From Escherichia coli (GTDB lineage Bacteria > Pseudomonadota > Gammaproteobacteria > Enterobacterales > Enterobacteriaceae), in NCBI GenBank assembly GCA_002099625.1, contig GCA_002099625.1_4857.1: a stretch of 64,000 nucleotides of DNA. One strand, written 5' to 3'. A program made the translations under genes and the position numbers. Under the pieces are notes generated by a model, which saw nothing but the letters and a program-made list of their open reading frames with translations, was not told the origin of the DNA and searched no databases. Shown here in pieces: positions 4,953 to 35,276 of this stretch. Every line of letters starts with the position of its first letter. Positions within the stretch are counted from its first letter, which is position 1.

Positions 4953-5546
4953 TTACGCTTCGGCCTCAAAGAACGGCTGGTTCGGTACCACTGCATATTC
5001 GAGCACGAAAAGATGTTCTGGGGCATCTTCTGCTCGCCACAGTTTGTGGCACGTTGCCAGTTTTTCCAGGATGGTCAACCAGCTGAGCTGGCAGAAAGCA
5101 CGATCGCCGAAGAACAGTTTCTGCAGTGCAATCGACACATCCATATACGCCTGTTTGAAGTCGAGTTCTTTATCGTAACCCGCCGACTGTCGCCACGTCA
5201 GCACGAAGCCTGCTTCGGTTTCGTTAATTGCTGGACGTAAACCACAAATCCACATCAGCGCCAGATTAACGTTCCAGTCGAATTCGATACCTTCGTCTTC
5301 GTCATCACCAAACGCCGCGTTTAACGCGTCGTAGAAACCGTGGTTCTCTGCGAACCATTCGCCGTACTCAACGTAGACAGGTGCTTCGACAGCTTCCCCA
5401 TCGGCTTCACCGATAGGACGCTCAACGTAGTTCGGATTGGTTTGAACGTGTTCCGCACCCGCGCGAATCAGTTCGTAAACGTCTTTGGCGGTGATTTGTG
5501 CGGCTGTTTTAAGACCTGGATACCAGGGGCGTGTTACGAGTGTCAA
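4953..5546 (-). CDS. hypothetical acidic protein (197 aa)
   Basis: ORF with AAAGGAG RBS 6 nt before a probable TTG start; overlaps stop of upstream gene by 4 nt. Confidence 0.55.
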   Translation of the reverse strand: MTLVTRPWYPGLKTAAQITAKDVYELIRAGAEHVQTNPNYVERPIGEADGEAVEAPVYVEYGEWFAENHGFYDALNAAFGDDEDEGIEFDWNVNLALMWICGLRPAINETEAGFVLTWRQSAGYDKELDFKQAYMDVSIALQKLFFGDRAFCQLSWLTILEKLATCHKLWRAEDAPEHLFVLEYAVVPNQPFFEAEA

Positions 5547-6265
5547 AGCAATGCTCCTTTCATGATAGTGTTATTTGCCAGTAATGTACCGGCCGCAGGT
5601 GATATTTTGGTGTACAGCGTATCCCAGATTTTCTGAAGTTCGGCGACGCGTTGGTCGTGGTCTTCCTTCGCAAAAGCAAGCTGACGTGTTTCAGCTTTCG
5701 GTGGTGTCATTTTCGCACCGTAGAATGCTGCGTCTTTTCGGTAGCTGGCCATCCAGCGTTTCCCGACCGGTGATTTCTTTTTAATCATCGCAACAGCAGC
5801 ACCCTCACCGAAGCGGTAGCCTAAAGCGATTTCGGCTGTGCTCGGCTTGCGTTTGAGTTGTTTTGTCAGATGATCCTCGATGTGTTTCATGTAAACGGCA
5901 GCAAGCTGTACAGCATACTTCGGTTTATTAAGGTCCGCATTCTTTGGGATGTTAAGTTGTTTCCCATACAGACGTATCATGGAGCGTTTAGTGCCTGTCG
6001 TCATTTGGACAACACTACTAGCACTGCTCGATTTATTCTTACCCACGTTTTTATTAAAACGGGATTCACGATAAATGGTGGTCGCGAGCATCCCGGCATG
6101 TACGCCTTGTTTTCGAGATGCGGTGACGATGAGAGGTTTAATCTCATTGAACTGGTCCTGGATAAGGACGAATTCTTTTTGGTGTTTGTTACTGGTGGTC
6201 TGGTAAGAAGCGTTGCTGTTGAACGTAGTCATTGCTACCAGAAGAAATAAAATGGTGCGAAACAT
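5543..6265 (-). CDS. secreted lytic transglycosylase-like protein (SLT-domain candidate)
   Basis: Signal-peptide-like N-terminus MFRTILFLLVAMTTFNSNA; motif IYRESRFN resembling the SLT catalytic E-S-x-F/W-N block; GGAGA RBS. Confidence 0.5.
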   Translation of the reverse strand: MFRTILFLLVAMTTFNSNASYQTTSNKHQKEFVLIQDQFNEIKPLIVTASRKQGVHAGMLATTIYRESRFNKNVGKNKSSSASSVVQMTTGTKRSMIRLYGKQLNIPKNADLNKPKYAVQLAAVYMKHIEDHLTKQLKRKPSTAEIALGYRFGEGAAVAMIKKKSPVGKRWMASYRKDAAFYGAKMTPPKAETRQLAFAKEDHDQRVAELQKIWDTLYTKISPAAGTLLANNTIMKGALL

Positions 6266-6364: not shown

Positions 6365-6865
6365 CTATTTGAAACTATTTGGGATGATTTTCTCTGCTTC
6401 CTTTAGCAGTGTGTCCGGTAAATAGAATCGATAAGTCTGCTCCGTGTGTTGTAGTCGTTTCTGTAAGTGTATAAAGATTTCCAATCGCTCATGGTAACGT
6501 AACCAACCGTTAGCCATCCCTAGGGGCGGTATCGCAATCCCTCCTTCTAAGTCTTCCCCTAGTCGCGCCAGCGCATCAATGCCGGACGTGACATAGTAAA
6601 TCTGCGATTTATAGCGAAAATGGGTTTTAGTAGGAAGGAGTATTACCCCTTCCTCAGGATAACAATAGACCTCACCGATAACGATTTGCTCTTTACGACA
6701 TTTCTGGCGATAGTCATTATAAAGCGATGGGAAGCGTTCTCGGCACGCCAAAGCAATGCCCCTTCCCATTGCACCAACACAGTTAACTGTAACGACCTTG
6801 AAGCGCTCAGGCGCGTTAAACAAGTCGTGGGAGATAACGGCCTCGTCGATCAGTTCGAGTGACAT
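6365..6865 (-). CDS. macro-domain-like protein (candidate ADP-ribose binding/hydrolase)
   Basis: 166 aa; KVVTVNCVGAMGRGIALA resembles the macro-domain V-N-A-A-N...G-G-G-V block; assignment by eye only. Confidence 0.4.
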   Translation of the reverse strand: MSLELIDEAVISHDLFNAPERFKVVTVNCVGAMGRGIALACRERFPSLYNDYRQKCRKEQIVIGEVYCYPEEGVILLPTKTHFRYKSQIYYVTSGIDALARLGEDLEGGIAIPPLGMANGWLRYHERLEIFIHLQKRLQHTEQTYRFYLPDTLLKEAEKIIPNSFK

Positions 6866-7787: not shown

Positions 7788-8303
7788 CTATGCTACCGCA
7801 GTCCTTAAAGGTTCATCTGCTTCCGCAGGAACCTGCTTCTTAAATTCAAGCCATTGTCCGTCTGTAGAGACGGTCTTGTCAAAACCGCGAGCGGTAAAGA
7901 ACGCAATACCAGCTTCCTGGCAAGCGTATATTCCCCCATGCGCACTGGTGAACTGTTCATTCACATCAAGCGCATCAAAAATCTGCGTCATCGTTTTACG
8001 ACGGCGTGCCATTTCAGACACGAACATCGTACGAATCTTCAGAACCCCAGCGATTACGCGATACAAACAGTAACCAACAGGGGTGCCCCCTTCCAGAGCA
8101 ACGCAAGCACGGTTCCCCGCCAACAGTTTCTCCAGAGTGAGGTTCGGAATCTCACCTTTTTCGATATGGAGTATGGTACGTTGGTGGTTCAGAAATTTAT
8201 AATGCAGCCCCAACAGCTGTTTATTTTGTGCTTCCGTTAAATCTGAAGATGAGGAAAGAATGACAATTTCGGCCATGAGCTGAATTCCTAAGTGAGCTTT
8301 CAC
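7788..8303 (-). CDS. hypothetical protein (171 aa; possibly starts at Met10, 8276)
   Basis: Minus ORF consistent with operon direction; first codon appears to be GTG; internal ATG at Met10 has AGGAA RBS. Confidence 0.55.
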   Translation of the reverse strand: MKAHLGIQLMAEIVILSSSSDLTEAQNKQLLGLHYKFLNHQRTILHIEKGEIPNLTLEKLLAGNRACVALEGGTPVGYCLYRVIAGVLKIRTMFVSEMARRRKTMTQIFDALDVNEQFTSAHGGIYACQEAGIAFFTARGFDKTVSTDGQWLEFKKQVPAEADEPLRTAVA

Positions 8304-8422
8304 CTGCGATGAAAGCGAGTAACGAAGAATTGCGTTTGTGTTTTCTTAAGTTTACCGGTAAAGCTTAGCGGTGTATACCGCTGCAGGTAAAGACCAGTTC
8401 TCTATCGGAACCGTGTCTTTAA

Positions 8423-8701
8423 TCAGCAACGTCGTTGAAAACGTCGCGATGCTGAGGTAACCTTCCGTCGCCACATTCGCTCATGGCGCTTCTGATTACC
8501 ACGCCAGTCTTCCCCGACTGTGCGTGAAACTGCAAAATCGTCCGGCCCGCAGACTTCCGCGATGTCTGCTAGAAGGTTCTTTGAAGACCCTATAGCCATC
8601 CCCACGCTCGAAAGAACGATACGCCGGGTTGGCTCGGCCGCCCCTGAACCCACGACCACGGGATCAGAGACTGTTTCACTGTCACATGATACTTCTCCCA
8701 C
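8423..8701 (-). CDS. hypothetical small protein (92 aa)
   Basis: GGAGGG RBS ~10 nt upstream of probable GTG start; basic C-terminus. Confidence 0.35.
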   Translation of the reverse strand: MGEVSCDSETVSDPVVVGSGAAEPTRRIVLSSVGMAIGSSKNLLADIAEVCGPDDFAVSRTVGEDWRGNQKRHERMWRRKVTSASRRFQRRC

Positions 8702-8929
8702 TTCGTAATTACCCTCCTGTTAAAACCAACCTTGCGTCAATGCAAGGATTGCGCCTAGGGCGTATGCGCCTGCTCCTAGTACCAGGCTACAGATGATACA
8801 CCCAACCCACTTCACTAAAATAACCATGATGCCAGAAATGCTCCGATTGCACAGATGATAATCGTAATGCCAAGGTCTGTCCAGGTGGTACCATCATACG
8901 CACCTGTTGCAATCATGGCTGCGTTGACA

Positions 8930-9133
8930 CTATTCACGACTGTCATAAGCCGGGTCCCTTAAACGCGGGGGCTTGCTCCACAGATTACCGAAGTAAACCC
9001 CTTCTAAGAACACCAAAACAACTAAGCCCCAGAAGGCAGGCGTGGCACGAGACAAGAAAATGCCCATCAGCACTACAGTGTGCATTACCACAACTGCCCA
9101 AAACTTTAAACGACCCGGTTTACGTGTTGCCAT
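8930..9133 (-). CDS. small membrane protein (67 aa from internal ATG)
   Basis: Track ORF 8930..9178 begins GTG; Met16 ATG has AAGGA RBS; two hydrophobic helices (FWAVVVMHTVVLMGIFL, FWGLVVLVFLEGVYF). Confidence 0.45.
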   Translation of the reverse strand: MATRKPGRLKFWAVVVMHTVVLMGIFLSRATPAFWGLVVLVFLEGVYFGNLWSKPPRLRDPAYDSRE

Positions 9134-9220
9134 GGAATGCCCATCCTTTCGTGCGGATAATCCAACCCCAGGCACCACGAATCAACCACAGTGCGATACC
9201 GGTTAGTACGATACCTTCAA

Positions 9221-9412
9221 TCATGTCCGTTCCCCTATATCTCGCCACTCACAACGCGTGTCAAAAAGACGTTCTTTAAGAGCAGAGGCTAAATACACAA
9301 CCGCAGCGATAACCACCACGGTTGCACAAAAGGAGAGGTACAGCACCATCACAACAAACTGAAGGAACTGAAAACCCCACCAAGCCCATAAGCGCCAACC
9401 TTTATGATGCAT
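9221..9412 (-). CDS. small membrane protein (63 aa)
   Basis: ATG start overlapping 3' end of upstream ATPase gene; hydrophobic core FVVMVLYLSFCATVVVIAAVVYLA. Confidence 0.45.
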   Translation of the reverse strand: MHHKGWRLWAWWGFQFLQFVVMVLYLSFCATVVVIAAVVYLASALKERLFDTRCEWRDIGERT

Positions 9413-11912
9413 ATTTGATTATTACCCCTTCGTTATACACCGGTGGAAGCGTCACACCTTCTGGTTCTACGACACAGTAGGTGGCTTCGTTAAGTTTAGA
9501 ATGAACTTCCGCTTCATGCGAAACGACCAGCAATTGAGAAAACTCTCCCGACAACGCCAACGATTTAATGAAGTTAACTAATCGGTTTTTGTGTTCTTCA
9601 TCCATGCCTTCAGATGGTTCATCCAATAACAAAGGATAGTTTTGTAAACCAAGTGCTTTATACGCCGTTAAACGAAACATCATGTTGAAAATAATGCGCT
9701 GTGCTTTTGAACCTTTCTTCACATCCGGCACCAGTTCTTCATGGTCTTTTAATCGCACTGGGAATGTATAATCCAAATCCCCGTCGGTTAAATCGCATGG
9801 AATAACCTGCATCGGATATGCCCACACCATCTCAATATACCGATTCATTAAATCCATGATGCGTGTAATCGCAGAATAGAAGTAACGTCTCAGTAAACCT
9901 TTTTCAGGAGAGACCGCGTTAATAATCAATCTGGCGTGGTGATGCTCTTTAAGCAATTCAGCTTGCTCTTTCTCCAGTTCCGCTAAGCGGGCAATAGCGC
10001 CTTCCATTTGTCGAAAACGTTCGCGCGCCGAGGTGTATGCATCTAACTTCGCTTCACGCCGGTTTAATAACTCGCGGACCACGACATTATTAACGGAAAT
10101 GTTCATTTCCGATATTAGATGCTCGTAACCTTTTTGGAAGCGTTCAATTGCATCCTTGGTTTGTTGCAACTGAGCAGTCTCACGTTCCAACTCACTGGCT
10201 TGTTTACGGTATTCTATTAACCGCCGATTAGCCCCATCCAGCTGTGACCGTACGTGTTCGATTTTCTGACTTAATGCGCCGTCGACGTTACCGACCGCAG
10301 CAACCGCTTCCTGCCACTCTCTTTCTGCTGTTGCAAGTTTTGCCGACTGACGTAGGTACATCATAGCCGATTCCATTTCTTCGGTAAAGGCACGTGCAAT
10401 AGCACCATAACGATCACGTGACGTAGTGAAGATATCCAACTCTTGCAGTTTGCGGAAGAACAAACCCACAACAGGATGATTGGAGTAAGACATGACGATT
10501 TCTCGAATCGTTCGTAAACTGCGAACGTCTTCTTCAATCTCTTTGCGGTCACGCAGAAGACTTTCCATTCCGACTTTCAGCTGTTTCTTCCAACCCTCGT
10601 TATCGTTGATCGCATTCTCAATTTCAGGTAGCGACTTGCGAATACCTGGACGGAATCGGTGGTTACATTGGGGGCAATCGACTTCTGCGGTTTCTAAGAA
10701 GTGCTGACGGTCGTGGTACAAACCGTGTAACACATTCTCGCAGCGCTGCAGTTTTTCAGATAGGTCTGCGGAGGTTAAATCCATACCCTGTAAACGTTTC
10801 TCTAACGCGCCCAGACGCTCTGTTGTCTTTAATTGGTCCAGATGCATAGACAACGGCAAGTTCCAGTTACAGGCGTCGTTTAGTGTGCTCTGAATGCTAT
10901 CCACGTCGATGCGGGTACCTTCAAACAGTTCAGGGAACAACCAATTTTGCTGGAATGTCGAAAGTTCCTGTTTTAAGCTGTCGATGGTTTGCTTTAGGCC
11001 GGCGTGATTACGCATCAGGTACGATTGTCGCGATTCCTCGTCCAGTAGCTGGGACAACTCTTTGTTGTACATACTGCATTCGGTCTCGGCTGAAGCTGCT
11101 TGTTCGCGCCATGCCACTACACGACTTTGAAACTCGTTAATCAGCTCGTCGGAAGGCAGTACACCGTACCGTTCCATGATAAGCTTTACAGCTGGCTGTA
11201 ATGACACAATACGTTTTCGGATACTATCAACCGAAACGGCGTTGTCTAGGCCAGGTCTCGCTTCAATTGTGCGGTTTAATTCCTGAAGCTCAGCATCGAG
11301 TTCTTTCAAACGAACTTCTAAACGTGCACGATCTTCTTCATCATCAACGACGCGCATTTTTGCTTCGCCGATTTTTCGTCCGGTGTGTTCGATGGCCCCG
11401 CTTAAACTGGAAGCGAGTTTACGCAAACGTCGATAGCAGCCAACGACATACGTTAAATCCGATTCTGACATTAACGTAAACCATTTGCGACGAACTTCGG
11501 TAGTGGCGTCAGTTAATAAGGTCTCGCCATTAATTAACTCTTTGATTTCTTTGGTGATTCCGGTTAACTGTTCCACCATGGAGTTGTAAACTTTGGCGTT
11601 TACCGAGTCCACAATAGGGACGCCTTTGGTGATATTGAAAATACTACAAGACAAAGAAGACCCACGTCGCAGGACTTCAAACTTAAGACGGTCGTCCCCG
11701 ACTAACGCGTAGTTAGTGTAAGAACCACCTTCACGGAATTCAGATTTTGCTGGAGCTAAGGGGAGAAAAACAGACAGGAGGCTTGTTTTACCGCAACCAT
11801 TGCCACCGAGGATGATGGTAACGGTTGACTTAAGGGTGAAATCAAACGTTTCGATTTCGTGTAACCCCATACCGGTAAATCCTTTCAAAATGATACGTTC
11901 GACCTTGAGCAT
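9402..11912 (-). CDS. Rad50/SbcC-like ABC ATPase with coiled coil and zinc hook
   Basis: N-terminal Walker A GGNGCGKTS; C-terminal signature/Walker B LLLDEPSEGMD and H-loop VVSHE; long heptad-rich middle; central CPQC (C-x-x-C) hook-like motif. Confidence 0.8.
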   Translation of the reverse strand: MLKVERIILKGFTGMGLHEIETFDFTLKSTVTIILGGNGCGKTSLLSVFLPLAPAKSEFREGGSYTNYALVGDDRLKFEVLRRGSSLSCSIFNITKGVPIVDSVNAKVYNSMVEQLTGITKEIKELINGETLLTDATTEVRRKWFTLMSESDLTYVVGCYRRLRKLASSLSGAIEHTGRKIGEAKMRVVDDEEDRARLEVRLKELDAELQELNRTIEARPGLDNAVSVDSIRKRIVSLQPAVKLIMERYGVLPSDELINEFQSRVVAWREQAASAETECSMYNKELSQLLDEESRQSYLMRNHAGLKQTIDSLKQELSTFQQNWLFPELFEGTRIDVDSIQSTLNDACNWNLPLSMHLDQLKTTERLGALEKRLQGMDLTSADLSEKLQRCENVLHGLYHDRQHFLETAEVDCPQCNHRFRPGIRKSLPEIENAINDNEGWKKQLKVGMESLLRDRKEIEEDVRSLRTIREIVMSYSNHPVVGLFFRKLQELDIFTTSRDRYGAIARAFTEEMESAMMYLRQSAKLATAEREWQEAVAAVGNVDGALSQKIEHVRSQLDGANRRLIEYRKQASELERETAQLQQTKDAIERFQKGYEHLISEMNISVNNVVVRELLNRREAKLDAYTSARERFRQMEGAIARLAELEKEQAELLKEHHHARLIINAVSPEKGLLRRYFYSAITRIMDLMNRYIEMVWAYPMQVIPCDLTDGDLDYTFPVRLKDHEELVPDVKKGSKAQRIIFNMMFRLTAYKALGLQNYPLLLDEPSEGMDEEHKNRLVNFIKSLALSGEFSQLLVVSHEAEVHSKLNEATYCVVEPEGVTLPPVYNEGVIIKYAS

Positions 11913-11964
11913 GTTTGCCTTCTAATGAGAAAGTATTAGTCGTTCATATCCAAAAGGCCATGCG

Positions 11965-11997
11965 TAAAAAAGAAGAAATGGAACCCCGAAGGGTTCC
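11965..11997 (-). terminator. rho-independent terminator (approx coords)
   Basis: Stem GGAACCC/GGGTTCC, loop CGAA, T-rich tail on minus strand. Confidence 0.5.
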
Positions 11998-12008
11998 AGA
12001 GAGGAGAG

Positions 12009-12635
12009 TTACTGCGGAATAAACTTACGGTGTCCGAGCGATTCCCAAAAACTGTCGGTGCGCTCTTTGGTTAATTCATACCACGCACGCCCGGCATCAG
12101 AATCGACAACCTTTAACGTTTCAGTAAGCAGGAATTTGAACAGTTCAGCGCTACGACCAGGTGCTACACCGTCGAGATATATCGGAATTAAATAACCGGT
12201 TTTGATTTCTTCGTACGGTTGCGATTGGTGCTGACCAACAACCCAGGCATCAGCAGCGCTACCGACCAAAGTGGTGTTTACAGTTAACTCATCAGAAATC
12301 CAGTTAACTGTATCAGCCATTATTGAATCGCCATTGACGTAGAAGAAAACTAAACGTTTAGGTTGTTCCACCGAACCAGCCAAATCTAATGCAGTAGTTC
12401 CGGTGAAGATCGTATTATTGGGATTACGTTCTGCAATAGGTAGAGCAAACCATGCTTCGAGCTGTTCCCAGCTACGTGGTAATGCTTCTTTAAACCACTT
12501 TACTAGCCGCGGGTATTCCAGAAACCCTTCGACTTCTTCTTCCATCAGATTGATACGCAGTTTGGTATCCTGACGATTCGCTTTCTGACACGTCACCATG
12601 TCGTCAATGAAACGAATCAGGGTAATCTCGTTCAT
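12009..12635 (-). CDS. hypothetical protein (208 aa)
   Basis: Long ORF between two terminators. Confidence 0.65.
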   Translation of the reverse strand: MNEITLIRFIDDMVTCQKANRQDTKLRINLMEEEVEGFLEYPRLVKWFKEALPRSWEQLEAWFALPIAERNPNNTIFTGTTALDLAGSVEQPKRLVFFYVNGDSIMADTVNWISDELTVNTTLVGSAADAWVVGQHQSQPYEEIKTGYLIPIYLDGVAPGRSAELFKFLLTETLKVVDSDAGRAWYELTKERTDSFWESLGHRKFIPQ

Positions 12636-12651
12636 GTTTAATCCTTCTTCA

Positions 12652-12681
12652 ACAAAAAAAGAAGGTAGCCTACGGGCTACC
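12652..12681 (-). terminator. rho-independent terminator (approx coords)
   Basis: Stem GGTAGCC/GGCTACC, loop TACG, followed on minus strand by T7 run. Confidence 0.55.
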
Positions 12682-12689
12682 TCTCGTAT

Positions 12690-13190
12690 TTACAGCCCCA
12701 TATGCATAAGGGAAATGATTGGGACCTTACGGCCACGAATCATTGCATACGGTTCGTACATTTGTGCGTTAGTTTCGAATAACTCACAGGCCGGAATGCG
12801 GTCACCGGTAGAGAGTTGTAAGACTTCAATTTGGTCGCCCCAGAAGTTATTCACTAATACATGGTCGACCGTGTTGTCTTCACGACCTTCTGGGGTGTTG
12901 CAATAAGTGGCTGCAGCGTACCAGCCCTTACGGTATGCTTCATAACCCGCATGAAGCATCCGGTAGTACGGGCGAAGTTGTGGGGCATTCAGAGTAGCAT
13001 CTAGCCACTCGCTGTGAATGGTGTTAATTAATACGGTTGCTTCTGCTGGCCAGTCGGTGCGGTTTAGGGTTAACTCGCCTAACAGCTTTAATTTCCAGCC
13101 AGTGGAAAGAATAGCACGGGTACGTTCGGGATTGACGTTCATCTGAGTAAAGAAAGAAGAACGGGTATCGTCGAGAATGTTCATGTTCAT
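12690..13190 (-). CDS. hypothetical protein (start placed at Met23 of track ORF 12690..13256)
   Basis: Track ORF first codon is non-ATG without RBS; Met23 (MNMNILDD...) has AAGGA RBS 8 nt upstream. Confidence 0.5.
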   Translation of the reverse strand: MNMNILDDTRSSFFTQMNVNPERTRAILSTGWKLKLLGELTLNRTDWPAEATVLINTIHSEWLDATLNAPQLRPYYRMLHAGYEAYRKGWYAAATYCNTPEGREDNTVDHVLVNNFWGDQIEVLQLSTGDRIPACELFETNAQMYEPYAMIRGRKVPIISLMHMGL

Positions 13191-13319
13191 TTGCTTAATC
13201 CTTACGAGTAATAGTCGATTAAAAAGGACCCTGCGGCTAAGTGTTGGGGATATCACCGCAGGGCCAAAGTGAGATGGGTCGTCATCTCACGTTATAACAT
13301 CAGTCTGAAAACTTTTCGG

Positions 13320-20820: not shown

Positions 20821-22073
20821 CGTGCTTTGTAGCGATGCATTTCAACAAATGGCTTACCCCAAGCCCCGAAAGGCCCGACGATTGCCTGCGCGTCGTTTAC
20901 CAAATTCTGGTTATACCAACGCGCGTTCCCCAACAAAAAGTTTTCCCGGTCGAAGAATGTGGTATTAAAGACCCACTCCCCTTCTTCCCAGGTCGGCCAG
21001 TACCCTACACATTTACCAATACGGTTAAAGATAGGACCTAGCGTCTTCTTCCCATCTGGGTCAGTCGGGTCTTTTAAATAGAACCGGCCCCAGATAGCGT
21101 TGTGGCTTATTCCGTGAATCTCTTTTTCGAGATACGGGTTGTCTATCGTAAAGATAAACGAGGATTCGTGCGTCAGCAACGCTTTTAACGTTTCTGAGTT
21201 ACGAATACGTTGAACGGACGTAGGCGTACTTAAATCACCTACACCGATGGCGTCCCAATCGTAATAGCGACGGGTTTCCAATACAATCTTCGCCACGCTA
21301 AGGTTTGGCAGACTCAGCATAATCGCACGGTCGCTGAAATAGCCCTGCGGTGGCAACCAATGCAGAATACCCCCGATGACGAACCCAACGGTTTTCCCTG
21401 TAATGGAATCGGGTAAGGTCAGCATTAACGAAGAATAGTAATCTCGCGTAGTATCGAGTTTGTTCATCGTTAAACTGGATATGGGGTAGGTCTTTACTTT
21501 ACCGATATTTGCCATCACCAGACAGCCAATGTCTGGCGTATTGGCACGCCGCACGATATTACCAGCGCCGGTTAAGCGAACGCCCACTGGGTCAGATTGG
21601 TGAGGTACCCACTGGCCATTGATGTTGTACAGCACCCCAGTACGGTATTTCTCTTTCCACTCATCGTCGCAGACTACAACAACGTCGTGTGCATCATCGG
21701 GATTGAAGTCCTGAGTGTAATGGTACCCAGGAGGGCACAGGTGCGTTTCTACGGGCACATCTGCATTAATAGACTGGTAGTGTGCCTCAACGAATTCGAG
21801 CTTCGGTAGGCCCTTCCCAAGCGTTGGAATCGCGATTCCTGACTTGGTGTTTAACCAATCTTGCAACGTGTCCGTACGGTTTTGTAAATCAGCCAGGTGA
21901 TACTGGCTATAGAAGGTATATTCAGCACCTAGTGCTTCTAGTCCTACTTCGAAAAAGTGGTAGTTAGCACAAAGGGTATTTAAGGGCTGCGTGACATCGA
22001 TGGTTCCCCAAGTTCGGGTGTCTCGAGAGAAGCCAAAAGCGCTGTCGGCCCGCACTTGATAAGCAGTAGTCAC
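20811..22073 (-). CDS. hypothetical protein (420 aa), divergent from the tail-fibre operon
   Basis: Long ORF with AGAGGA RBS. Confidence 0.7.
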   Translation of the reverse strand: MTTAYQVRADSAFGFSRDTRTWGTIDVTQPLNTLCANYHFFEVGLEALGAEYTFYSQYHLADLQNRTDTLQDWLNTKSGIAIPTLGKGLPKLEFVEAHYQSINADVPVETHLCPPGYHYTQDFNPDDAHDVVVVCDDEWKEKYRTGVLYNINGQWVPHQSDPVGVRLTGAGNIVRRANTPDIGCLVMANIGKVKTYPISSLTMNKLDTTRDYYSSLMLTLPDSITGKTVGFVIGGILHWLPPQGYFSDRAIMLSLPNLSVAKIVLETRRYYDWDAIGVGDLSTPTSVQRIRNSETLKALLTHESSFIFTIDNPYLEKEIHGISHNAIWGRFYLKDPTDPDGKKTLGPIFNRIGKCVGYWPTWEEGEWVFNTTFFDRENFLLGNARWYNQNLVNDAQAIVGPFGAWGKPFVEMHRYKARKK

Positions 22074-22140
22074 TGGCTGTTTCCTCTAAGGATTCGGGTC
22101 ATAGTATGAACTCGACGCCCTCAGAGAAAAGGAGTGTAAA

Positions 22141-25100
22141 ATGGCTGTCGTCCCTGACCCGCACTATCAAGAACCGGGGAATATGCAGACCGGTGAAGCG
22201 GTAACGCCGATCGGTACTAAGTACCGGATGTTGTTCCCCGCACACGCCCCCTTTTATACCACATCCCTGGTGGTCAAGAGTGGCGGCAAGAAATTAACAT
22301 TAGGTGATGATTACGTCATCACCCATGCGTACGTTACGGGCATGGCACGCACTGGCCATGTTTGTCATGGTGGTGTGTGGATTACCAACCCGAAATATCA
22401 GAGTGGCTTTACACTCGATTACCACGCAATTGGCATCGGTGAAGCCACTGCAGAAATGATCGCCGCAGAACGAGAAGCGAATAAAGATCGCTATCCCGTG
22501 GACTGCCAATGGGATAACGTCATTGGGGATTTATATTTCCCACCGGTCGATATTAAGTTCGACTGGGAAAACTGGCGTGGCGAATCCGAGTTGATGGAAG
22601 CCATTGTTGCGGTTGGCGCTAAGCTCGGTGAAGCGATCAGTCGCGTTGACCCGATTGCTCGTAACACGTTAGACCTTCAATATCGCGCCGGTGTCACGCT
22701 TATCACATCCGAGCAGTATGCGACGTACGACGGTACTGGCGGCTACACGTATAACGCGAAACGTCGTCGTTATTCGTTATCTTACCAGAACACGACGTTC
22801 AATGCGTATTCGTTAGCGGTAAAACACCGTTTACCGAGCATTCCACCGGAAACAACGTTAAACCCAGGCGAGTTGATCGATTGGATGCTCTGTTACGCAA
22901 ACGGTGGGACAAGTATCCTGCGTCTTCAGTTGAAGCAACGCGCGATTTATCTTACCTTAACGACGGCGATTGGTTCTGGTTCGTCTAATTACAGCTATAC
23001 GTTGACGACTGGCCTGACCGATACCGAGTTGGCGGGTGATATTGAGCTTAGCGTGGTCAGACGCGAAGGTAACGGCGTTTACGACATTACCGTTAAAACA
23101 AGCAAGCAAACCGTTAACTACAGCTTTAACGTTGACAACCCACCGAGCGAATTTGCACCAGGGTATCAGAAAACTGATGTCGCAAAATGGTTGAAGTTTA
23201 AATCGGGCGTCAACCTAAACTGGTGGGCAGGTGAGAACGATTACGTCCAGATTCGTTCATTACCAGGCGCACCGGCACCTGACGTTAACAACGACGTGTA
23301 CCAGCTGCTGGTAAAATATCACCAGATTGTCGATAAGCTGTACCGTGATGCACCGGCACATACGCACGTGCCGCGCAAGGATAACCCACATCGCGATTCG
23401 TGGGGCGCAATCCGTGCTTTGGAGAATAACGGTATTGCTTCGGACGCGACACTGGTATACGGAAAAACGCAACCGCAGCTGACAGATTACGTTAACAATC
23501 TGTTGCCGAAACTGTCAACGCTGGCGAATAAGCTTTTACGTTTACCGGCGGCTGCACAGTCTATCAACGGCACTTTCGGTATGAGGCCTGGCCTGACTTC
23601 GATAACGTCAGCAGTGGGTACCGATGAGTCTGAAGGAGTGGGTGCACAATTCACGGTTGACCCGAAGGTTATCCGTTTTATTGGACGCGATTCGCAAACC
23701 GTTAACGCCGGGAACAATCCGATTACATGGCAAGGTGGGGCTAACCAACTCATCCTTTATCCGGATTCCCGTGGATTGGAGTTCAACGGTAAGAAACTAT
23801 TGGACCCTACTACGGTCGGGCCGTACCTGCCGGGTAACGAGTCAGGTGGTGATGGACTGTTTTACGGAACATCCACAGCTACTGTAACCATTAACGGCAA
23901 CGGTATTCAGTCTGTTCCGTTCATTTGTACTTTTGTTCCACCGGAGTCCGACGACCTTGGCCTGATGGCTGTCCGTTTGTTGGCTACTGAATTCGGTGAT
24001 CGTGAGGACTTGGCCGCAACGCCGGCACTCATCAAGAAATTGGATCAGCAGTTTACGGGCAAGTTGGTTGCTGTTAAATCGTACATCAACGACATGCCAC
24101 TGACGAGTTCTATTTACATCGATAAAACTAACTTCGGCTTATCGAACGTACAGAACATCCCAGATGTGCAATTGCCGATTTCCCCGCTCCAACGAGCTGA
24201 GCTGGACAAGTACGCAGTCGTCGGTCACACACACACTCCTGCTGCGCTCGGGATTAAGCGTGCAACAACGACGGAGTTCGGTTTAGTACAGTTCGGCACC
24301 GCGGTTGACGATGCCACGCTGGCATTAGACGGCGGTGAGGTCATCCGACAGGCGGACGCCATCACAGAGATAGAGAAGGTTGCGAAGACAGTCGACTCTG
24401 GTGCTTCAATCAACATTATTCGTTACGGTTTACCCGGCACGGACATCATTGAAAACGGCATCACTTACACCGACTGGATGGTTACTATTAAAGCGAACGA
24501 TTATTTCGTTGGTCGCGAGTACAAAGTACCTCTCTCCACATTTAACTTGGCGGAGCTATTCCCAGCGACGCACGAAGATGCTGAGTTTGGCGTGTATGTT
24601 GACGCGGCGGGCGATGACGGCAAGTACATTATCTACGAAAATCCAAACACGGCAGAAACTGAGACGATGACCAAAATAGGTTCCATCATCACCAGTGAAA
24701 CCGGTGTGGTTTTTGTAGAAATCCGCAACGTGACGCGTTTAGGTGAGTTCCGTGAATTAGGCGAGCATATCGAGGATGATAACGCCCATATTCGTCGGGG
24801 CATGACGCAAGCTGAATTCGGATTTACTTACGGTACTGGCGGGCCTGTGTGGTCCACGGGCGCACCGGGTACAAAACGTATAGATGCCGATTGGCGTTAC
24901 GCGCAGGCTAGCAGCTATACACCTATGTTGAAAGCGGACTACGATCCGGCTGCTGATAAATGGACGTTTAAAACAACCAGTTTATCTGTAACCGATTATC
25001 GTTTTGTCCACAACACATTCCCGATGTTCCAGAATAACGGCATTACCGCAACGTGGACACCTTTAACCGCAACAGCGGACAGTGTGCTAGAAACGGTAAT

Positions 25101-33000: not shown

Positions 33001-35276
33001 CGCTGACTCTGGGAGCGAATTCCAGACTTATCTGGTTGTCACAACCGCGTTCCCGTTTGGCAATTGAAGTTGAGTTTGATCCGAACACCACTTACTCAGG
33101 TAAGGCGGGGTATGGCCCAACTAACAATCGTCGTGTAGTAGATTCTATCACGTATGAGAATCTGTCGCAGATGTGCCACATTGTTACACCGGCGTCGCCT
33201 GGTACAGAGTTAAACGGCTGGTATTGCACAGGACCAGAAACATTCCCTTACCACAACGTTTCCGGCACTTTCACGATTCATGCCGATCGATTGACGCTGT
33301 CACAAGCTGAATGGGATAAGATGAAGCAGATGATCATCGACGGAGCACCGGCAGGCGCTGCGAATGGTTATGCTTCGGAATTTATCCTTGCTGCAAATAA
33401 CGCAGGAAAGGCATTGTTTTCCGTTTGGTTCATCGGCATCGGAACGGCCACACCGCTCACATTAGCACAAGTAGCATGTACACGTACTGTGAACAATGTT
33501 AACTTGTTAGATATCTACTACTTTACACTGAAACCAACAATCAGCAACGGGCAGGTAACATTCCCCGCAGCGATATTGGCACTGTTTGACTTCTATAACA
33601 ACCTCGACTATGGCTTGAACTATGCTACGTTGGGAGAGATAACGGGAGGAAAAACACGCCGGCCGGGACAACCTACCATGGTGTCGGTAGATGGTACGCA
33701 GTTCGGGTTGTATCTTCCACACACGTTAACCTTGCGCCAGATTGGCGACTTGGGTGCGCTTAACTACGCTGCTGGTCTTACGCTGTCTAATGGTACCTGG
33801 ACGCGTTCTTCTGCACCACACGGCGTTGGACGTATGGCACCGTCACACACTCCAGTCAGCCCAGCTTATCTGGCTCATCGTGATCAGGTGATGCTACACA
33901 ACTCATCTCTCGACTACGTCTATTGTGGTGGTATCGCAATGTCGTCGAGTGATTTTGTTGCACGTCCGAGTTTCGGTGGGGCGACTGAGACTGTTGTTAT
34001 CGCCGGTGTGGAAACAGCCGAAGGTTGGCTGGTATATGTGACTGAGGAAGTTAACCTGCGTTTCGGCTCGAGCACTTATAAGCTGCCTACGTGGTATATT
34101 GACCTCAGCGCAGCGTTTCCAACAAACCATCAGAACCGGACATTCTACCTGCACGCTAAGGTAGAAAATGGTACACCGAAGTACGTAATGGACGTGGTTC
34201 AACATCCAGACACTGAAACGGAACTCTACATCGGGTATGTTAAAACGGGCTCGTCGCGAGTCGTCGAGACTAACGTCGACCATGCTAAGCGATTGGGGGC
34301 GGTAAAACAGCTGTTGGAACACGCGGCGGTTGAGAATAAGCATGATGTGGAAGTGGGAAGGGATGCAGCAACGGGCAGACTGGCACCATTGCGTAAAGAA
34401 GCGATGGGTCCTTTGTCAGTCGATGCTACGAAAGGCTATCTGGATAGTCAGTTGCTTTATACCGTATCTGACGCACAGCGTCGCGGTAAAGCGATGGTGT
34501 CCAAACGTTTCGAAGGCTTGAAAACTTTGCCGGCGTTTACTCAGGCAAACAAGTCGGGGGCGTTTTGGAAACATCCTACAACAATCGCGACGGTAACGGC
34601 CGACGAGAACAGTGAAGCGACATCGTTGGGTATGGAGTGGGTAGGTATTCCAACGCCCGCTTTCGCTCCGACTTCAACAAACTTGATGGTGGTGGTGCAA
34701 AGTAAATTCGTCGTCCCAGGTACACTGGGAGTAGAAACGACCTTTAATGTCCACGTTGCCCCATGGGAGGCGGTGGATGGCTTTTTCTACAACGTCGAGG
34801 CGGAAGGTACGGATGTTAACATTGACGAAAATCCAGAAGTGTTATTGCCGTCACCACATACCGTGCACCACAAACAGCACTCTCTGCCAGCAGGCGTGCC
34901 GTGCACCTTTACATTTGTCGCGGCGGTAAGTTCTTCAGCGCTCGAAACAGCTAACCAGCATATTTGCTCTTGGCTTTTCACGGACGCTGGGGGTCTACCA
35001 ATCACCACCGATCTTTCGGATAGTAAGATTCAAATCTTACCACAGTCGGGAGAGACCAACGGCACACCAGTTGTTCTGAACAGTCGTAGCTACACGTTTA
35101 CGAATGTGACAGGTGCAATCCCGGTTGTTACCACGGGCGCTCAGGGTTTATTCCCACCACCGATCGTGGCGTGGGATGGCGATGATCTTACGTTAACGAT
35201 TGCGCACGATTGGGTGAACGAGAGAGGACGTCAACAGCCTGATATTATCCAGGTCAATCTTATGTTCCGTACCTAA
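30093..35276 (+). CDS. tail fibre protein 3 (1727 aa from Met16 of track ORF 30048..35276)
   Basis: GGAGTG RBS 6 nt before internal ATG; motifs HTHTIADLDNVPYASTSVTGLAKLW and PAATTTVQGLFAIT. Confidence 0.8.
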   Translation: MPREDAAQFNGTLSTATYPNRYSTVIPVEAPFYRIGLTLTVTDKTTGTKRKLIEGLDYFLGHYFQELAEAENDAIYGSIMLLNATEVEYELLSVGRQYRIPASEIGKYLVKTDMKDPRNCDWSELMKYPPIISPIDPPKDLEEAILRDEIVKALEDIRLGILERAHELDEAFAEVTDLIYQNGKKVFDDEMYQHHLIKNAHGYTCGDIGALPVLGKAVDATKAFGRTLAELVTLMSTSGIQQKHVDMLLDNTLGDLLGRMRVLNNDAITFQTTSGHVISMKGEKFIITSTKPLVLKADQDNNEPGIATEFSAGLNTLWVHSGKAGDKWGAYDAGVLAPVYNSVYLVTPDMVKMYLTSVKILPANAYFKSSDTLKIYGSGKETNKVYMNAELPAATTTVQGLFAITNLSASAAASTAISQKAVTDLKNKLDGYVDDTYTVNGKGFVLDENGQMHLTLTASDFGIEKMNNTGPLEKPVTNALRTVLSGKALSTHTHTIADLDNVPYASTSVTGLAKLWDAIDTTTDKMVTARQGFLLEQKIGTLNDKIATLLPAWTVGGSSYGNNNFLPIPVQGNYEGYTKNQTWQKGLARYEAGKVYSLRNGSNGNPPGDWAIYYAYADVSPSNTLENMQQTSVRYHPAGMSAYPGVNLVAILITGTDAMICLGSDYAYYLVIFDGTIDHAKHHRVVKVYLGDYRNGNAAGVITTTPWVADPSTNDLIVCNDRVYLLRTVLTSGDYFVSMRSIALNELNLGGSNTFVADVLTGGMLTSGDNIYLRQGQKRSDTDVLVAPVTQIYADASAKWNSARNFVHGPECNHAIAVDGLNFRVGLTPTVWFASTTGQTINFKQWVSSFVVDCSSMTVTLEGADRFPIVADLTTVRYNGGAEIGIPSRKWGEGQANNRTFATSQDKYIVSQGHAGDRDLMPYVTITTLDDGVSWYEYLSCDYNFTARSFSAVMLNQGRGSIYELGMAYPLTLGANSRLIWLSQPRSRLAIEVEFDPNTTYSGKAGYGPTNNRRVVDSITYENLSQMCHIVTPASPGTELNGWYCTGPETFPYHNVSGTFTIHADRLTLSQAEWDKMKQMIIDGAPAGAANGYASEFILAANNAGKALFSVWFIGIGTATPLTLAQVACTRTVNNVNLLDIYYFTLKPTISNGQVTFPAAILALFDFYNNLDYGLNYATLGEITGGKTRRPGQPTMVSVDGTQFGLYLPHTLTLRQIGDLGALNYAAGLTLSNGTWTRSSAPHGVGRMAPSHTPVSPAYLAHRDQVMLHNSSLDYVYCGGIAMSSSDFVARPSFGGATETVVIAGVETAEGWLVYVTEEVNLRFGSSTYKLPTWYIDLSAAFPTNHQNRTFYLHAKVENGTPKYVMDVVQHPDTETELYIGYVKTGSSRVVETNVDHAKRLGAVKQLLEHAAVENKHDVEVGRDAATGRLAPLRKEAMGPLSVDATKGYLDSQLLYTVSDAQRRGKAMVSKRFEGLKTLPAFTQANKSGAFWKHPTTIATVTADENSEATSLGMEWVGIPTPAFAPTSTNLMVVVQSKFVVPGTLGVETTFNVHVAPWEAVDGFFYNVEAEGTDVNIDENPEVLLPSPHTVHHKQHSLPAGVPCTFTFVAAVSSSALETANQHICSWLFTDAGGLPITTDLSDSKIQILPQSGETNGTPVVLNSRSYTFTNVTGAIPVVTTGAQGLFPPPIVAWDGDDLTLTIAHDWVNERGRQQPDIIQVNLMFRT

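Follow-up and report, generated by a model that had tools for sequence, protein, structure and literature searches.

The 836-aa protein encoded on the minus strand at 9402..11912 is very probably the SbcC/Rad50 subunit of a phage Mre11-Rad50-type (SbcCD) complex, and it belongs to an SPN3US-like, phiKZ-related jumbo phage. The window, i.e., the whole 64-kb stretch of DNA that was analyzed, is by its ~94% DNA identity a piece of a phage of this type (Seoulvirus). The gene starts with ATG and encodes an SbcC/Rad50-like ABC ATPase, orthologous to gp186 of SPN3US and orf165 of phiKZ. The profile of phrog_77, annotated 'SbcC-like', matches the protein across aa 1-835 at E = 3.9e-95. Seoulvirus orthologs are ~97% identical at the amino acid level (97.0-97.1% for SaP7, SPFM17, and SPLA5c), and identity to phiKZ165 is 22% over the full length.

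This is not a new gene but the ortholog of the already-described SPN3US gp186. The protein of SPN3US, a giant phage of Salmonella, is deposited as SPN3US_0186, a 'putative SMC domain-containing protein', and was found to be essential by amber mutation and named the SbcC subunit by Thomas et al. in 2016 (PMC5105663). Both proteins have 836 aa, and their genes have identical neighbors, gp187-gp189 among them; the distance to the gene of SbcD (gp27 in SPN3US) is also shared within the Seoulvirus group. In phiKZ, orf165 is among the core-genome genes that give a phenotype on ASO knock-down (PMC12571901) and is without transposon insertions (PMC12676376). SbcC and SbcD occur in practically all jumbo phages, where they count as core recombination apparatus (PMC7824862). 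The discovery value is thus small, as the gene, its essentiality, its motif content, the distant SbcD, and the downstream transmembrane ORF are already published for SPN3US (PMC5105663), and the SbcCD pair is already recognized as a core recombination module that nearly all jumbo phages share. The window differs from SPN3US by ~6% DNA divergence and by ORFs of 34, 35, and 92 aa that are absent from the SPN3US annotation. The gains are at the level of annotation: two conserved small ORFs (34 and 35 aa), a corrected 92-aa basic protein, a small hydrophobic cluster that is clade-specific, and a viral Rad50 branch with a degenerate signature.

Motif conservation was scored on an alignment of 11 divergent homologs with identity down to 19%. 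The Walker A motif (P-loop), GGNGCGKT, is located at aa 36-43 (11784..11807, minus strand) and aligns to the N-lobe of PfRad50. Its residues G36, N38, G39, G41, and K42 are invariant. The Walker B motif LLLDE (aa 761-765), the D-loop SEGMD, and the H-loop S798-H799 are encoded within 9516..9632 (minus strand), and D764, E765, S798, and H799 are likewise invariant. Between the two ATPase lobes is an insert of ~510 aa with a putative zinc hook, C-P-Q-C, at its midpoint (aa 413-416; 10665..10676, minus strand). C413, P414, and C416 of the hook are invariant, and the arms on either side of it are ~253 and ~252 aa long. The insert is mostly helical by prediction, and confidence in the single-sequence AlphaFold model is low (pLDDT 47, pTM 0.27). 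In the PDB, the Rad50 zinc-hook structures 1L8D (E = 0.0043) and 6ZFF (E = 0.0067) are matched by positions ~366-462 of the family profile. T4 gp46 has a helical insert that is shorter by ~300 aa, and no BLASTP-level similarity to T4 is reported (PMC5105663).

The ABC signature is degenerate. It reads G-S-K-A-Q (aa 734-738; 9699..9713, minus strand) and aligns to SGGER of PfRad50, with S735-K-A-Q-R where Rad50 has S-G-G-E-R and Ala in place of the second Gly. Across the family, the signature ranges from SGGE, found in Aphrodite1, to SKAQ, and S735 is invariant among the 11 homologs. No clear Q-loop Gln could be seen by eye in the homolog alignment. At the expected place is N128-G129, ~13 residues before the invariant R141; G129 is nearly invariant, and the preceding residue varies between N, T, L, and S. 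With the SKAQ signature and no identifiable Q-loop Gln, ATPase kinetics may differ from those of canonical Rad50. An earlier note on this DNA had credited the protein with the full Rad50 architecture. This holds for Walker A, the hook, Walker B, and the H-loop, whereas the signature is only partly canonical. A degenerate signature motif is carried by this viral branch of Rad50 proteins.

Database searches place the protein in the same family. A single-sequence phmmer search matches both ATPase lobes to Rad50 (E = 9e-5), and with a family profile searched against the PDB, Pyrococcus furiosus Rad50 is matched on both lobes at E = 6.8e-15. The archaeal protein is the best solved-structure match for both lobes and the hook (PDB 3QKU/3QKT for the heads and 1L8D for the hook). 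It differs from the phage protein in having SGGE instead of SKAQ and in the Q-loop Gln, and the phage protein does not reach the curated Rad50 cut-offs. The best Rad50 model among the NCBIfam Rad50/SbcC equivalogs scores 54 bits against cut-offs of 700-1087, and for Pfam SMC_N the score is 28.1 bits, with a cut-off of 40. These scores mark the protein as a divergent viral branch, whose place in Rad50/SbcC is based on phrog_77 and the profile-to-PDB matches. Together with the motifs, these bear out the assignment to Rad50/SbcC with a zinc hook that was made from the DNA letters. The SbcC-like proteins of phiKZ (orf165) and other Chimalliviridae are homologous to it over their full length (19-22% identity, ~820-836 aa) and share the CPxC hook and the ATPase motifs, which are invariant.

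The predicted partner is the SbcD/Mre11 nuclease, which is not encoded in the window. The best tblastn match to an SbcD-like gene in the 64 kb has E = 0.56, and the genes that flank the SbcC-like gene are without nuclease similarity. The upstream gene (12009..12635) belongs to phrog_9964, of unknown function, and has no Pfam match; downstream are small hydrophobic ORFs only. The lack of an adjacent Mre11/SbcD gene reported earlier is thus confirmed. In T4 and E. coli, the ATPase and nuclease genes are adjacent, whereas in SPN3US-like relatives they are far apart. SPN3US has its SbcD-like gp27 at 21020..22168 and gp186 at 168900..171410, a distance of ~147 kb, and SPLA5c has the two genes at 33135..34283 and 178935..181445, ~145 kb apart. 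The SbcD-like gene is found in all close relatives, including 23 records at >=99% protein identity, from which we infer that the source phage of the window has it too. By the gene order of these relatives, it would lie roughly 95 kb beyond the window end and not just outside it. This agrees with the suggestion in the earlier note that the nuclease is encoded elsewhere. SPN3US gp27 has been named the SbcD partner, its gene and that of gp186 have been described as "drastically separated", and gene dispersal is a general feature of phiKZ-like genomes (PMC5105663). The ATPase gene is without an adjacent nuclease gene because phiKZ-like gene order is scrambled, not because its function has changed; 'orphan' fits the local gene order only.

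The SbcD-like protein of the relatives matches phrog_100 at E = 8.5e-64, so that both phage subunits fall in PHROG families named for SbcC and SbcD. The Mre11 metal-binding motifs D-x-H, G-D, G-T-x-x-H-D, H-G, and H-x-H are invariant in the family. A profile of seven sequences matches only Mre11/SbcD structures in the PDB, across the phosphoesterase domain (E = 8.9e-8). The profile is needed, as a single-sequence phmmer search of the PDB returned nothing and Pfam gave only a sub-threshold match to Metallophos (E = 0.032). Among Chimalliviridae-type phage records, 300 have the SbcC-like gene and 290 the SbcD-like gene. The counts are equal for phages of Pseudomonas (81/81), Erwinia (62/62), Serratia (21/21), Aeromonas (19/19), Klebsiella (16/16), and Ralstonia (13/13).

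The proposed mechanism follows the established biochemistry of Rad50/SbcC and of T4 gp46/gp47. T4 gp46/gp47 and E. coli SbcCD have the same two-subunit logic, a coiled-coil ABC ATPase and a calcineurin-like nuclease. Each ATPase head would be built from the two lobes, N- and C-terminal, of a single chain, and two heads would dimerize around ATP. Antiparallel coiled-coil arms of ~250 aa would be joined at a Cys4 zinc hook, to which each of the two chains contributes one C-P-Q-C. The SbcD/Mre11 nuclease (the gp27 ortholog), whose gene lies at a distant site in the genome, would bind to the head as a dimer. The complex would clip and resect DNA ends and hairpins, and this end processing may feed recombination-dependent replication and repair of the phage genome.

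Downstream of the SbcC-like gene are five small ORFs, all on the minus strand and with overlapping start and stop codons. The earlier note had counted two to four hydrophobic ORFs here; they are present, but there are five, and the 34-aa ORF had been missed. Four of the five have a Kyte-Doolittle stretch above 1.6, and the 34-aa ORF is borderline. The first (9221..9412) encodes a 63-aa hydrophobic protein of phrog_16515, of unknown function. Its ATG overlaps the SbcC stop by 11 nt, its hydrophobic stretch spans aa 13-47, and it is 61% identical in pEa_SNUABM_29, with a pN/pS of 0.39 in frame vs 1.7-2.0 off frame. It is the ortholog of SPN3US gp187, a 63-aa transmembrane protein encoded downstream of gp186 (PMC5105663). 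The 34-aa protein (9120..9224; phrog_13448), without annotation in SPN3US, has an ATGA overlap with the 63-aa ORF, is 82% identical in pEa_SNUABM_29 and 54% identical to Wellington gp209, and has a pN/pS of 0.16. The 67-aa protein (8930..9133; phrog_18173) is the SPN3US gp188 ortholog, has two hydrophobic segments, and is found in the Salmonella-phage clade only. The 43-aa protein (8815..8946; phrog_29196) is the SPN3US gp189 ortholog, has a C-terminal hydrophobic segment, and is 63% identical in pEa_SNUABM_29, with a pN/pS of 0.28. The last, a 35-aa hydrophobic peptide (8720..8827), is without annotation in SPN3US, and its C-terminal ALTQGWF is kept in pEa_SNUABM_29 and Wellington gp212. By the pN/pS values of 0.16-0.39, the small ORFs are real genes. 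The gapless pN/pS of the SbcC-like gene itself was disregarded, since an indel shifts the register after ~aa 326.

The block continues with a 92-aa ORF (8423..8701, minus strand; phrog_15402), which has a GTG start behind AGGAGG and a conserved Arg-rich C-terminus. It probably closes the co-oriented block that includes the SbcC-like gene. Its C-terminal 42 aa differ from pEa_SNUABM_29 by 12 synonymous and 2 non-synonymous changes (pN/pS 0.05). The strongly conserved region 8423-8560 was also considered as a non-coding RNA or DNA element and rejected. Rfam was empty at E up to 1, there are no tRNAs, and the region is a protein gene because its substitutions are strongly codon-periodic in one frame. 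In SPN3US, this conserved basic gene is mis-annotated as gp190, in another frame.

Terminator-like hairpins are present at both ends. The first, GGAACCC-TTCG-GGGTTCC followed by a T-run (11979..11998, minus strand; consensus scan only), separates the upstream gene from the start of the SbcC-like gene, and suggests that a new transcription unit begins at SbcC. The second (8730-8747) lies within the last codons of the 35-aa ORF. Phages of the SPN3US-like group use their own RNA polymerases. For this reason, and because a sigma-70 scan showed no enrichment over shuffles (6 found vs 7.1 expected), no promoter is claimed.

This layout raises an alternative that is unlikely: the SbcC-like ATPase is part of a membrane-associated module, in which one or more small hydrophobic proteins tether or regulate SbcCD at the cell membrane or another lipid structure. 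A membrane tether has reportedly been proposed for T4 gp46/47 with gp47.1. In the window, the chain of overlapping start and stop codons begins inside the SbcC stop codon and is bounded by the hairpins, and the small ORFs are under purifying selection. A hydrophobic small ORF is directly 3' of SbcC in Seoulvirus, Wellingtonvirus, and Derbicusvirus. However, this first downstream ORF has no detectable homology between the Seoulvirus phages, Wellington, and CR5/Phobos. In phiKZ, RSL2, Aphrodite1, Ea35-70, Goslar, and PCH45, there is no small-ORF cluster 3' of the ortholog; unlike in the window, a baseplate gene adjoins the SbcC-like gene, divergently transcribed upstream of it. Phages of this group replicate their DNA in a proteinaceous nucleus, and this places replication away from the membrane. 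Thomas et al. raised the membrane idea for gp187, but in phiKZ-like genomes, function is poorly predicted by which genes are adjacent (PMC5105663). The small ORFs and the 92-aa ORF are co-oriented, probably co-translated, and limited to the SPN3US/Wellington/CR5 clade, and most likely they are not obligatory parts of the SbcCD machine. It is similarly doubtful that the five small ORFs, perhaps with the Arg-rich 92-aa protein, form a clade-specific accessory module that localizes or regulates the phage Mre11-Rad50 complex. As one example, it could anchor the complex to a membrane or, in a nucleus-forming phage, to the early infection vesicle. If true, it would be the first concrete handle on the site of DNA-end processing in these phages.

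Recruitment of the ATPase to a nuclease-independent SMC-like or defense/counter-defense role, e.g., LmuB-like DNA-end sensing or genome organization, is very improbable: PADLOC LmuB models match the protein at E = 1.6e-19 and the JetC, DndD, and PtuA models of SMC-like defense ATPases match weakly, no nuclease gene adjoins it, and its signature and Q-loop motifs are degenerate, but the phrog_77 match (4e-95) is far stronger than those to LmuB, which any coiled-coil ATPase of the Rad50 type is expected to give. In Lamassu, LmuB is encoded with genes for the LmuA effector and the LmuC partner; here, none of the adjoining genes is of the LmuA or LmuC type. They are phage genes without an assigned function plus small hydrophobic ORFs, and no effector is among them. 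The ATPase gene belongs to the core set of the family, and the phage cannot do without it (PMC5105663, PMC12571901, PMC12676376). The nuclease-free role proposed in the earlier note finds no support, as the SbcC-like gene co-occurs genus by genus with that of an SbcD-like predicted nuclease whose catalytic motifs are intact.

Two minor observations concern the same region. Tiny tblastn matches in SPFM1, SPFM6, and SPFM20 looked like a paralog of the hook region or a diverged allele of it, and BLASTP of SPFM1 showed otherwise. The SPFM1 CDS is the same protein cut into ~20-aa blocks whose order is reversed, the mark of a scrambled GenBank deposit and not of biology; from the match pattern, we infer the same artifact in SPFM6 and SPFM20. 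The GC skew is negative at 8-10 kb, because the hydrophobic minus-strand ORFs use G/T-rich codons.

The SbcC-like gene (9402..11912, minus strand) lies in jumbo phage DNA. By megablast against phage genomes, positions 8300-13300 of the window match 37 records, the best of which are all ~240-kb Seoulvirus jumbo phages. The closest, Proteus phage 7 and Salmonella phage SPN3US, are ~94% identical over the full 5 kb. SPN3US (genes 174-202) and SPLA5c, another Seoulvirus relative, share the gene order around the SbcC-like gene; if collinearity is assumed, the window corresponds roughly to SPN3US 117-181 kb, reverse-complemented.

The gene, its "orphan" aspect, and a membrane peptide beside it are already in the literature, since the gene, its partner, and the peptide are covered by work on SPN3US, and the gene also by work on the distant relative phiKZ. 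The SPN3US ortholog, gp186, was named the SbcC subunit, with ORF165 as its phiKZ homolog and gp27 as the SbcD subunit; it has a split ATP-binding cassette with an insert of >600 residues, an amber mutant was isolated, and the gene is listed as essential (Thomas et al. 2016, PMC5105663). Directly 3' of gene 186 lies the gene for gp187, which is 63 aa long and predicted to contain a transmembrane domain; gp187 was compared with T4 gp47.1 (PMC5105663). In phiKZ, orf165 is among the core-genome genes with a phenotype on antisense knock-down (PMC12571901) and is without transposon insertions (PMC12676376). Among jumbo phages in general, both SbcC and SbcD are nearly always present and are regarded as belonging to the core recombination apparatus (Iyer et al., PMC7824862).

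The 836-aa product matches phrog_77, "SbcC-like subunit of palindrome specific endonuclease", over its whole length (E = 3.9e-95). The PADLOC LmuB models match far more weakly (1.6e-19), as would be expected of any Rad50-like ATPase. Pfam gives SMC_N and AAA at sub-threshold level only, and the NCBIfam Rad50 equivalogs match at 1e-11 to 1e-15, far under their cut-offs. Pyrococcus furiosus Rad50 is the first PDB match of the single sequence (E = 9e-5) and is matched across both lobes by an 11-sequence profile (E = 6.8e-15); at the CPxC, the profile also matches 1L8D and 6ZFF, structures of the Rad50 zinc hook in isolation. A single-sequence structure model (pLDDT 47) was too poor to use.

The protein contains Walker A (GGNGCGKT, aa 36-43), Walker B (LLLDE, aa 761-765), a D-loop (SEGMD), an H-loop (S798-H799), and a single CxxC, C413-P-Q-C416. 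A largely helical insert of ~510 residues separates the two ATPase lobes, with the CxxC at its midpoint. The arms on either side are ~253 and ~252 aa, the near-equal lengths required by an antiparallel coiled coil that folds back on itself. When 11 homologs with identities as low as 19% are aligned, G36, N38, G39, G41, K42, C413, P414, and C416 do not vary, nor do S735, D764, E765, S798, and H799 in the C-lobe; these are the catalytic and hook residues. Motifs, alignment, and PDB profile matches thus bear out the earlier note's description of an ATPase with Walker A, CPQC hook, Walker B, and H-loop. Its signature claim holds for the invariant serine, but the rest is non-canonical, S735-K-A-Q-R compared with S-G-G-E-R in P. 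furiosus Rad50; the homologs range from SGGE (Vibrio phage Aphrodite1) to SKAQ. No Q-loop glutamine was identifiable by eye.

As the earlier note observed, neither flanking gene has nuclease similarity, and when the SbcD-like protein of the relatives was searched over the entire window by tblastn, nothing matched (best E = 0.56). Judging from the relatives, the suggestion that the partner is encoded elsewhere is correct. In SPLA5c, an "SbcD-like" CDS (33135..34283) is ~145 kb from the SbcC-like gene (178935..181445), and in SPN3US, gp27, "putative nuclease SbcCD D subunit", is at 21020..22168 and gp186 at 168900..171410. Thomas et al. called the two SPN3US genes "drastically separated" (PMC5105663). 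The 382-aa SbcD-like protein belongs to phrog_100 (SbcD-like, E = 8.5e-64). The motifs of the Mre11 metal ligands, D22-x-H24, G57-D58, G97-T-x-x-H101-D102, H180-G181, and H212-x-H214, do not vary among seven divergent homologs. The profile of these homologs matches only Mre11/SbcD structures: Thermotoga maritima Mre11 (2Q8U, E = 8.9e-8, whole phosphoesterase domain) ranks first, ahead of E. coli SbcD, P. furiosus Mre11, and human MRE11.

Phage records number 300 for the SbcC-like and 290 for the SbcD-like protein. Counts agree for Pseudomonas (81/81), Erwinia (62/62), Serratia (21/21), Aeromonas (19/19), Klebsiella (16/16), and Ralstonia (13/13) hosts, whereas Salmonella phages have 35 and 24. 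Given this co-occurrence, there is no sign that the ATPase was recruited to another role.

By analogy with Rad50/SbcC-Mre11/SbcD and T4 gp46/gp47, whose biochemistry is established, ATP would drive dimerization of the SbcC-like heads, the putative zinc hook would join the coiled-coil arms, and the ATPase would bind an SbcD dimer. The complex would process DNA ends and hairpins, leading to recombination-dependent replication. For the phage protein, the data establish homology, conserved motifs, a co-occurring nuclease, and, from published work, essentiality; the scheme itself is inferred from the known systems. Overall, the observation in the earlier note is confirmed and its interpretation is partly supported.

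A 63-aa ORF has the SbcC stop codon within its start region, and an overlapping start/stop chain then continues on the minus strand. It is composed of the 63-aa ORF (9221..9412, 11-nt overlap with SbcC), a 34-aa ORF (9120..9224, ATGA overlap of 4 nt), a 67-aa ORF (8930..9133, 14 nt), a 43-aa ORF (8815..8946, 17 nt), and a 35-aa ORF (8720..8827, 13 nt). The hydrophobic ORFs expected here are present, but they number five, not two to four; hydrophobic segments are clear in four and borderline in the 34-aa ORF. The SPN3US reference record leaves the 34- and 35-aa ORFs unannotated. All except the 35-aa ORF fall in PHROGs of unknown function.

Erwinia phage pEa_SNUABM_29, with an SbcC of 75% identity, has the 63-, 34-, and 43-aa ORFs at 61-82% identity. 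In frame, pN/pS for these three is 0.39, 0.16, and 0.28, respectively, compared with at least 1 in other frames. The 34- and 35-aa peptides are kept in this phage and in Wellington (gp209 and gp212, respectively). The C-terminal ALTQGWF of the 35-aa ORF is invariant, and its codons also form a putative terminator-like hairpin (8730-8747); another is found just upstream of the SbcC start (11979-11998). The 67-aa ORF is limited to the Salmonella-phage clade. CR5 and Phobos also have a hydrophobic small ORF 3' of SbcC, with no detectable sequence similarity to those of the window, and phiKZ, RSL2, Aphrodite1, Ea35-70, Goslar, and PCH45 have no small-ORF cluster 3' of the SbcC ortholog. From the in-frame purifying pattern, the homologs, and the limited clade range, the small ORFs are genuine genes, specific to the clade and probably expressed together with SbcC.

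Their tie to SbcC function is one of position only. The ORFs lie ~2.5 kb from an endolysin gene, and a lysis-related role, holin or spanin-like, is conceivable. The one interpretation that would be somewhat new, in which the chain serves the phage SbcCD complex as an accessory module, is very improbable.

In the six distant Chimalliviridae that lack the cluster, the SbcC-like gene adjoins a baseplate gene transcribed divergently from it; five of the records call this neighbor "baseplate assembly protein", and in PCH45 it has no annotation. The SPN3US/Wellington/CR5 clade has lost this micro-synteny. Goslar has a RuvC gene two genes downstream of the SbcC-like gene.

The next gene after the 35-aa ORF is a 92-aa ORF (8423..8701, minus strand), with a GTG start 9 nt after AGGAGG. 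It belongs to phrog_15402 and has GEDWRG[NT]Q[KR]RH in common with Wellington gp213. Its Arg-rich C-terminus (CGPDDFAVSRTVGEDWRGNQKRHERMWRRKVTSASRRFQRRC) is near-identical in pEa_SNUABM_29, with 12 synonymous and 2 non-synonymous changes (pN/pS 0.05). SPN3US instead annotates the 40-aa gp190 in another frame (window 8352..8474) and pEa_SNUABM_29 a 74-aa ORF in the third; both are probably mis-calls. Further downstream on the minus strand are a GNAT acetyltransferase (7788..8303), a macro-domain protein (6365..6865, phrog_335 "phosphatase"), and an SLT-type transglycosylase/endolysin (5543..6265), the ortholog of SPN3US gp198.

In the Salmonella phage SPFM1 record (LR535901.1, 72167..74674), the gp186 ortholog is deposited as an 835-aa CDS in which ~20-aa (60-nt) blocks of the true protein stand in inverted order. 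The deposit's sequence lines were apparently reversed without reverse-complementing, and the CDS is a scrambled database entry and not a divergent allele. Matches of the neighboring genes are similarly fragmentary, and LR535905.1 (SPFM6) and LR535917.1 (SPFM20) have the same hit pattern. Such deposits may account for the Salmonella SbcD-like deficit.

On the plus strand, GC skew is strongly negative (-0.136) and AT skew positive at window 8001..10000. G/T-rich codons in the minus-strand hydrophobic ORFs, and not a replication feature, are taken to explain the GC skew.
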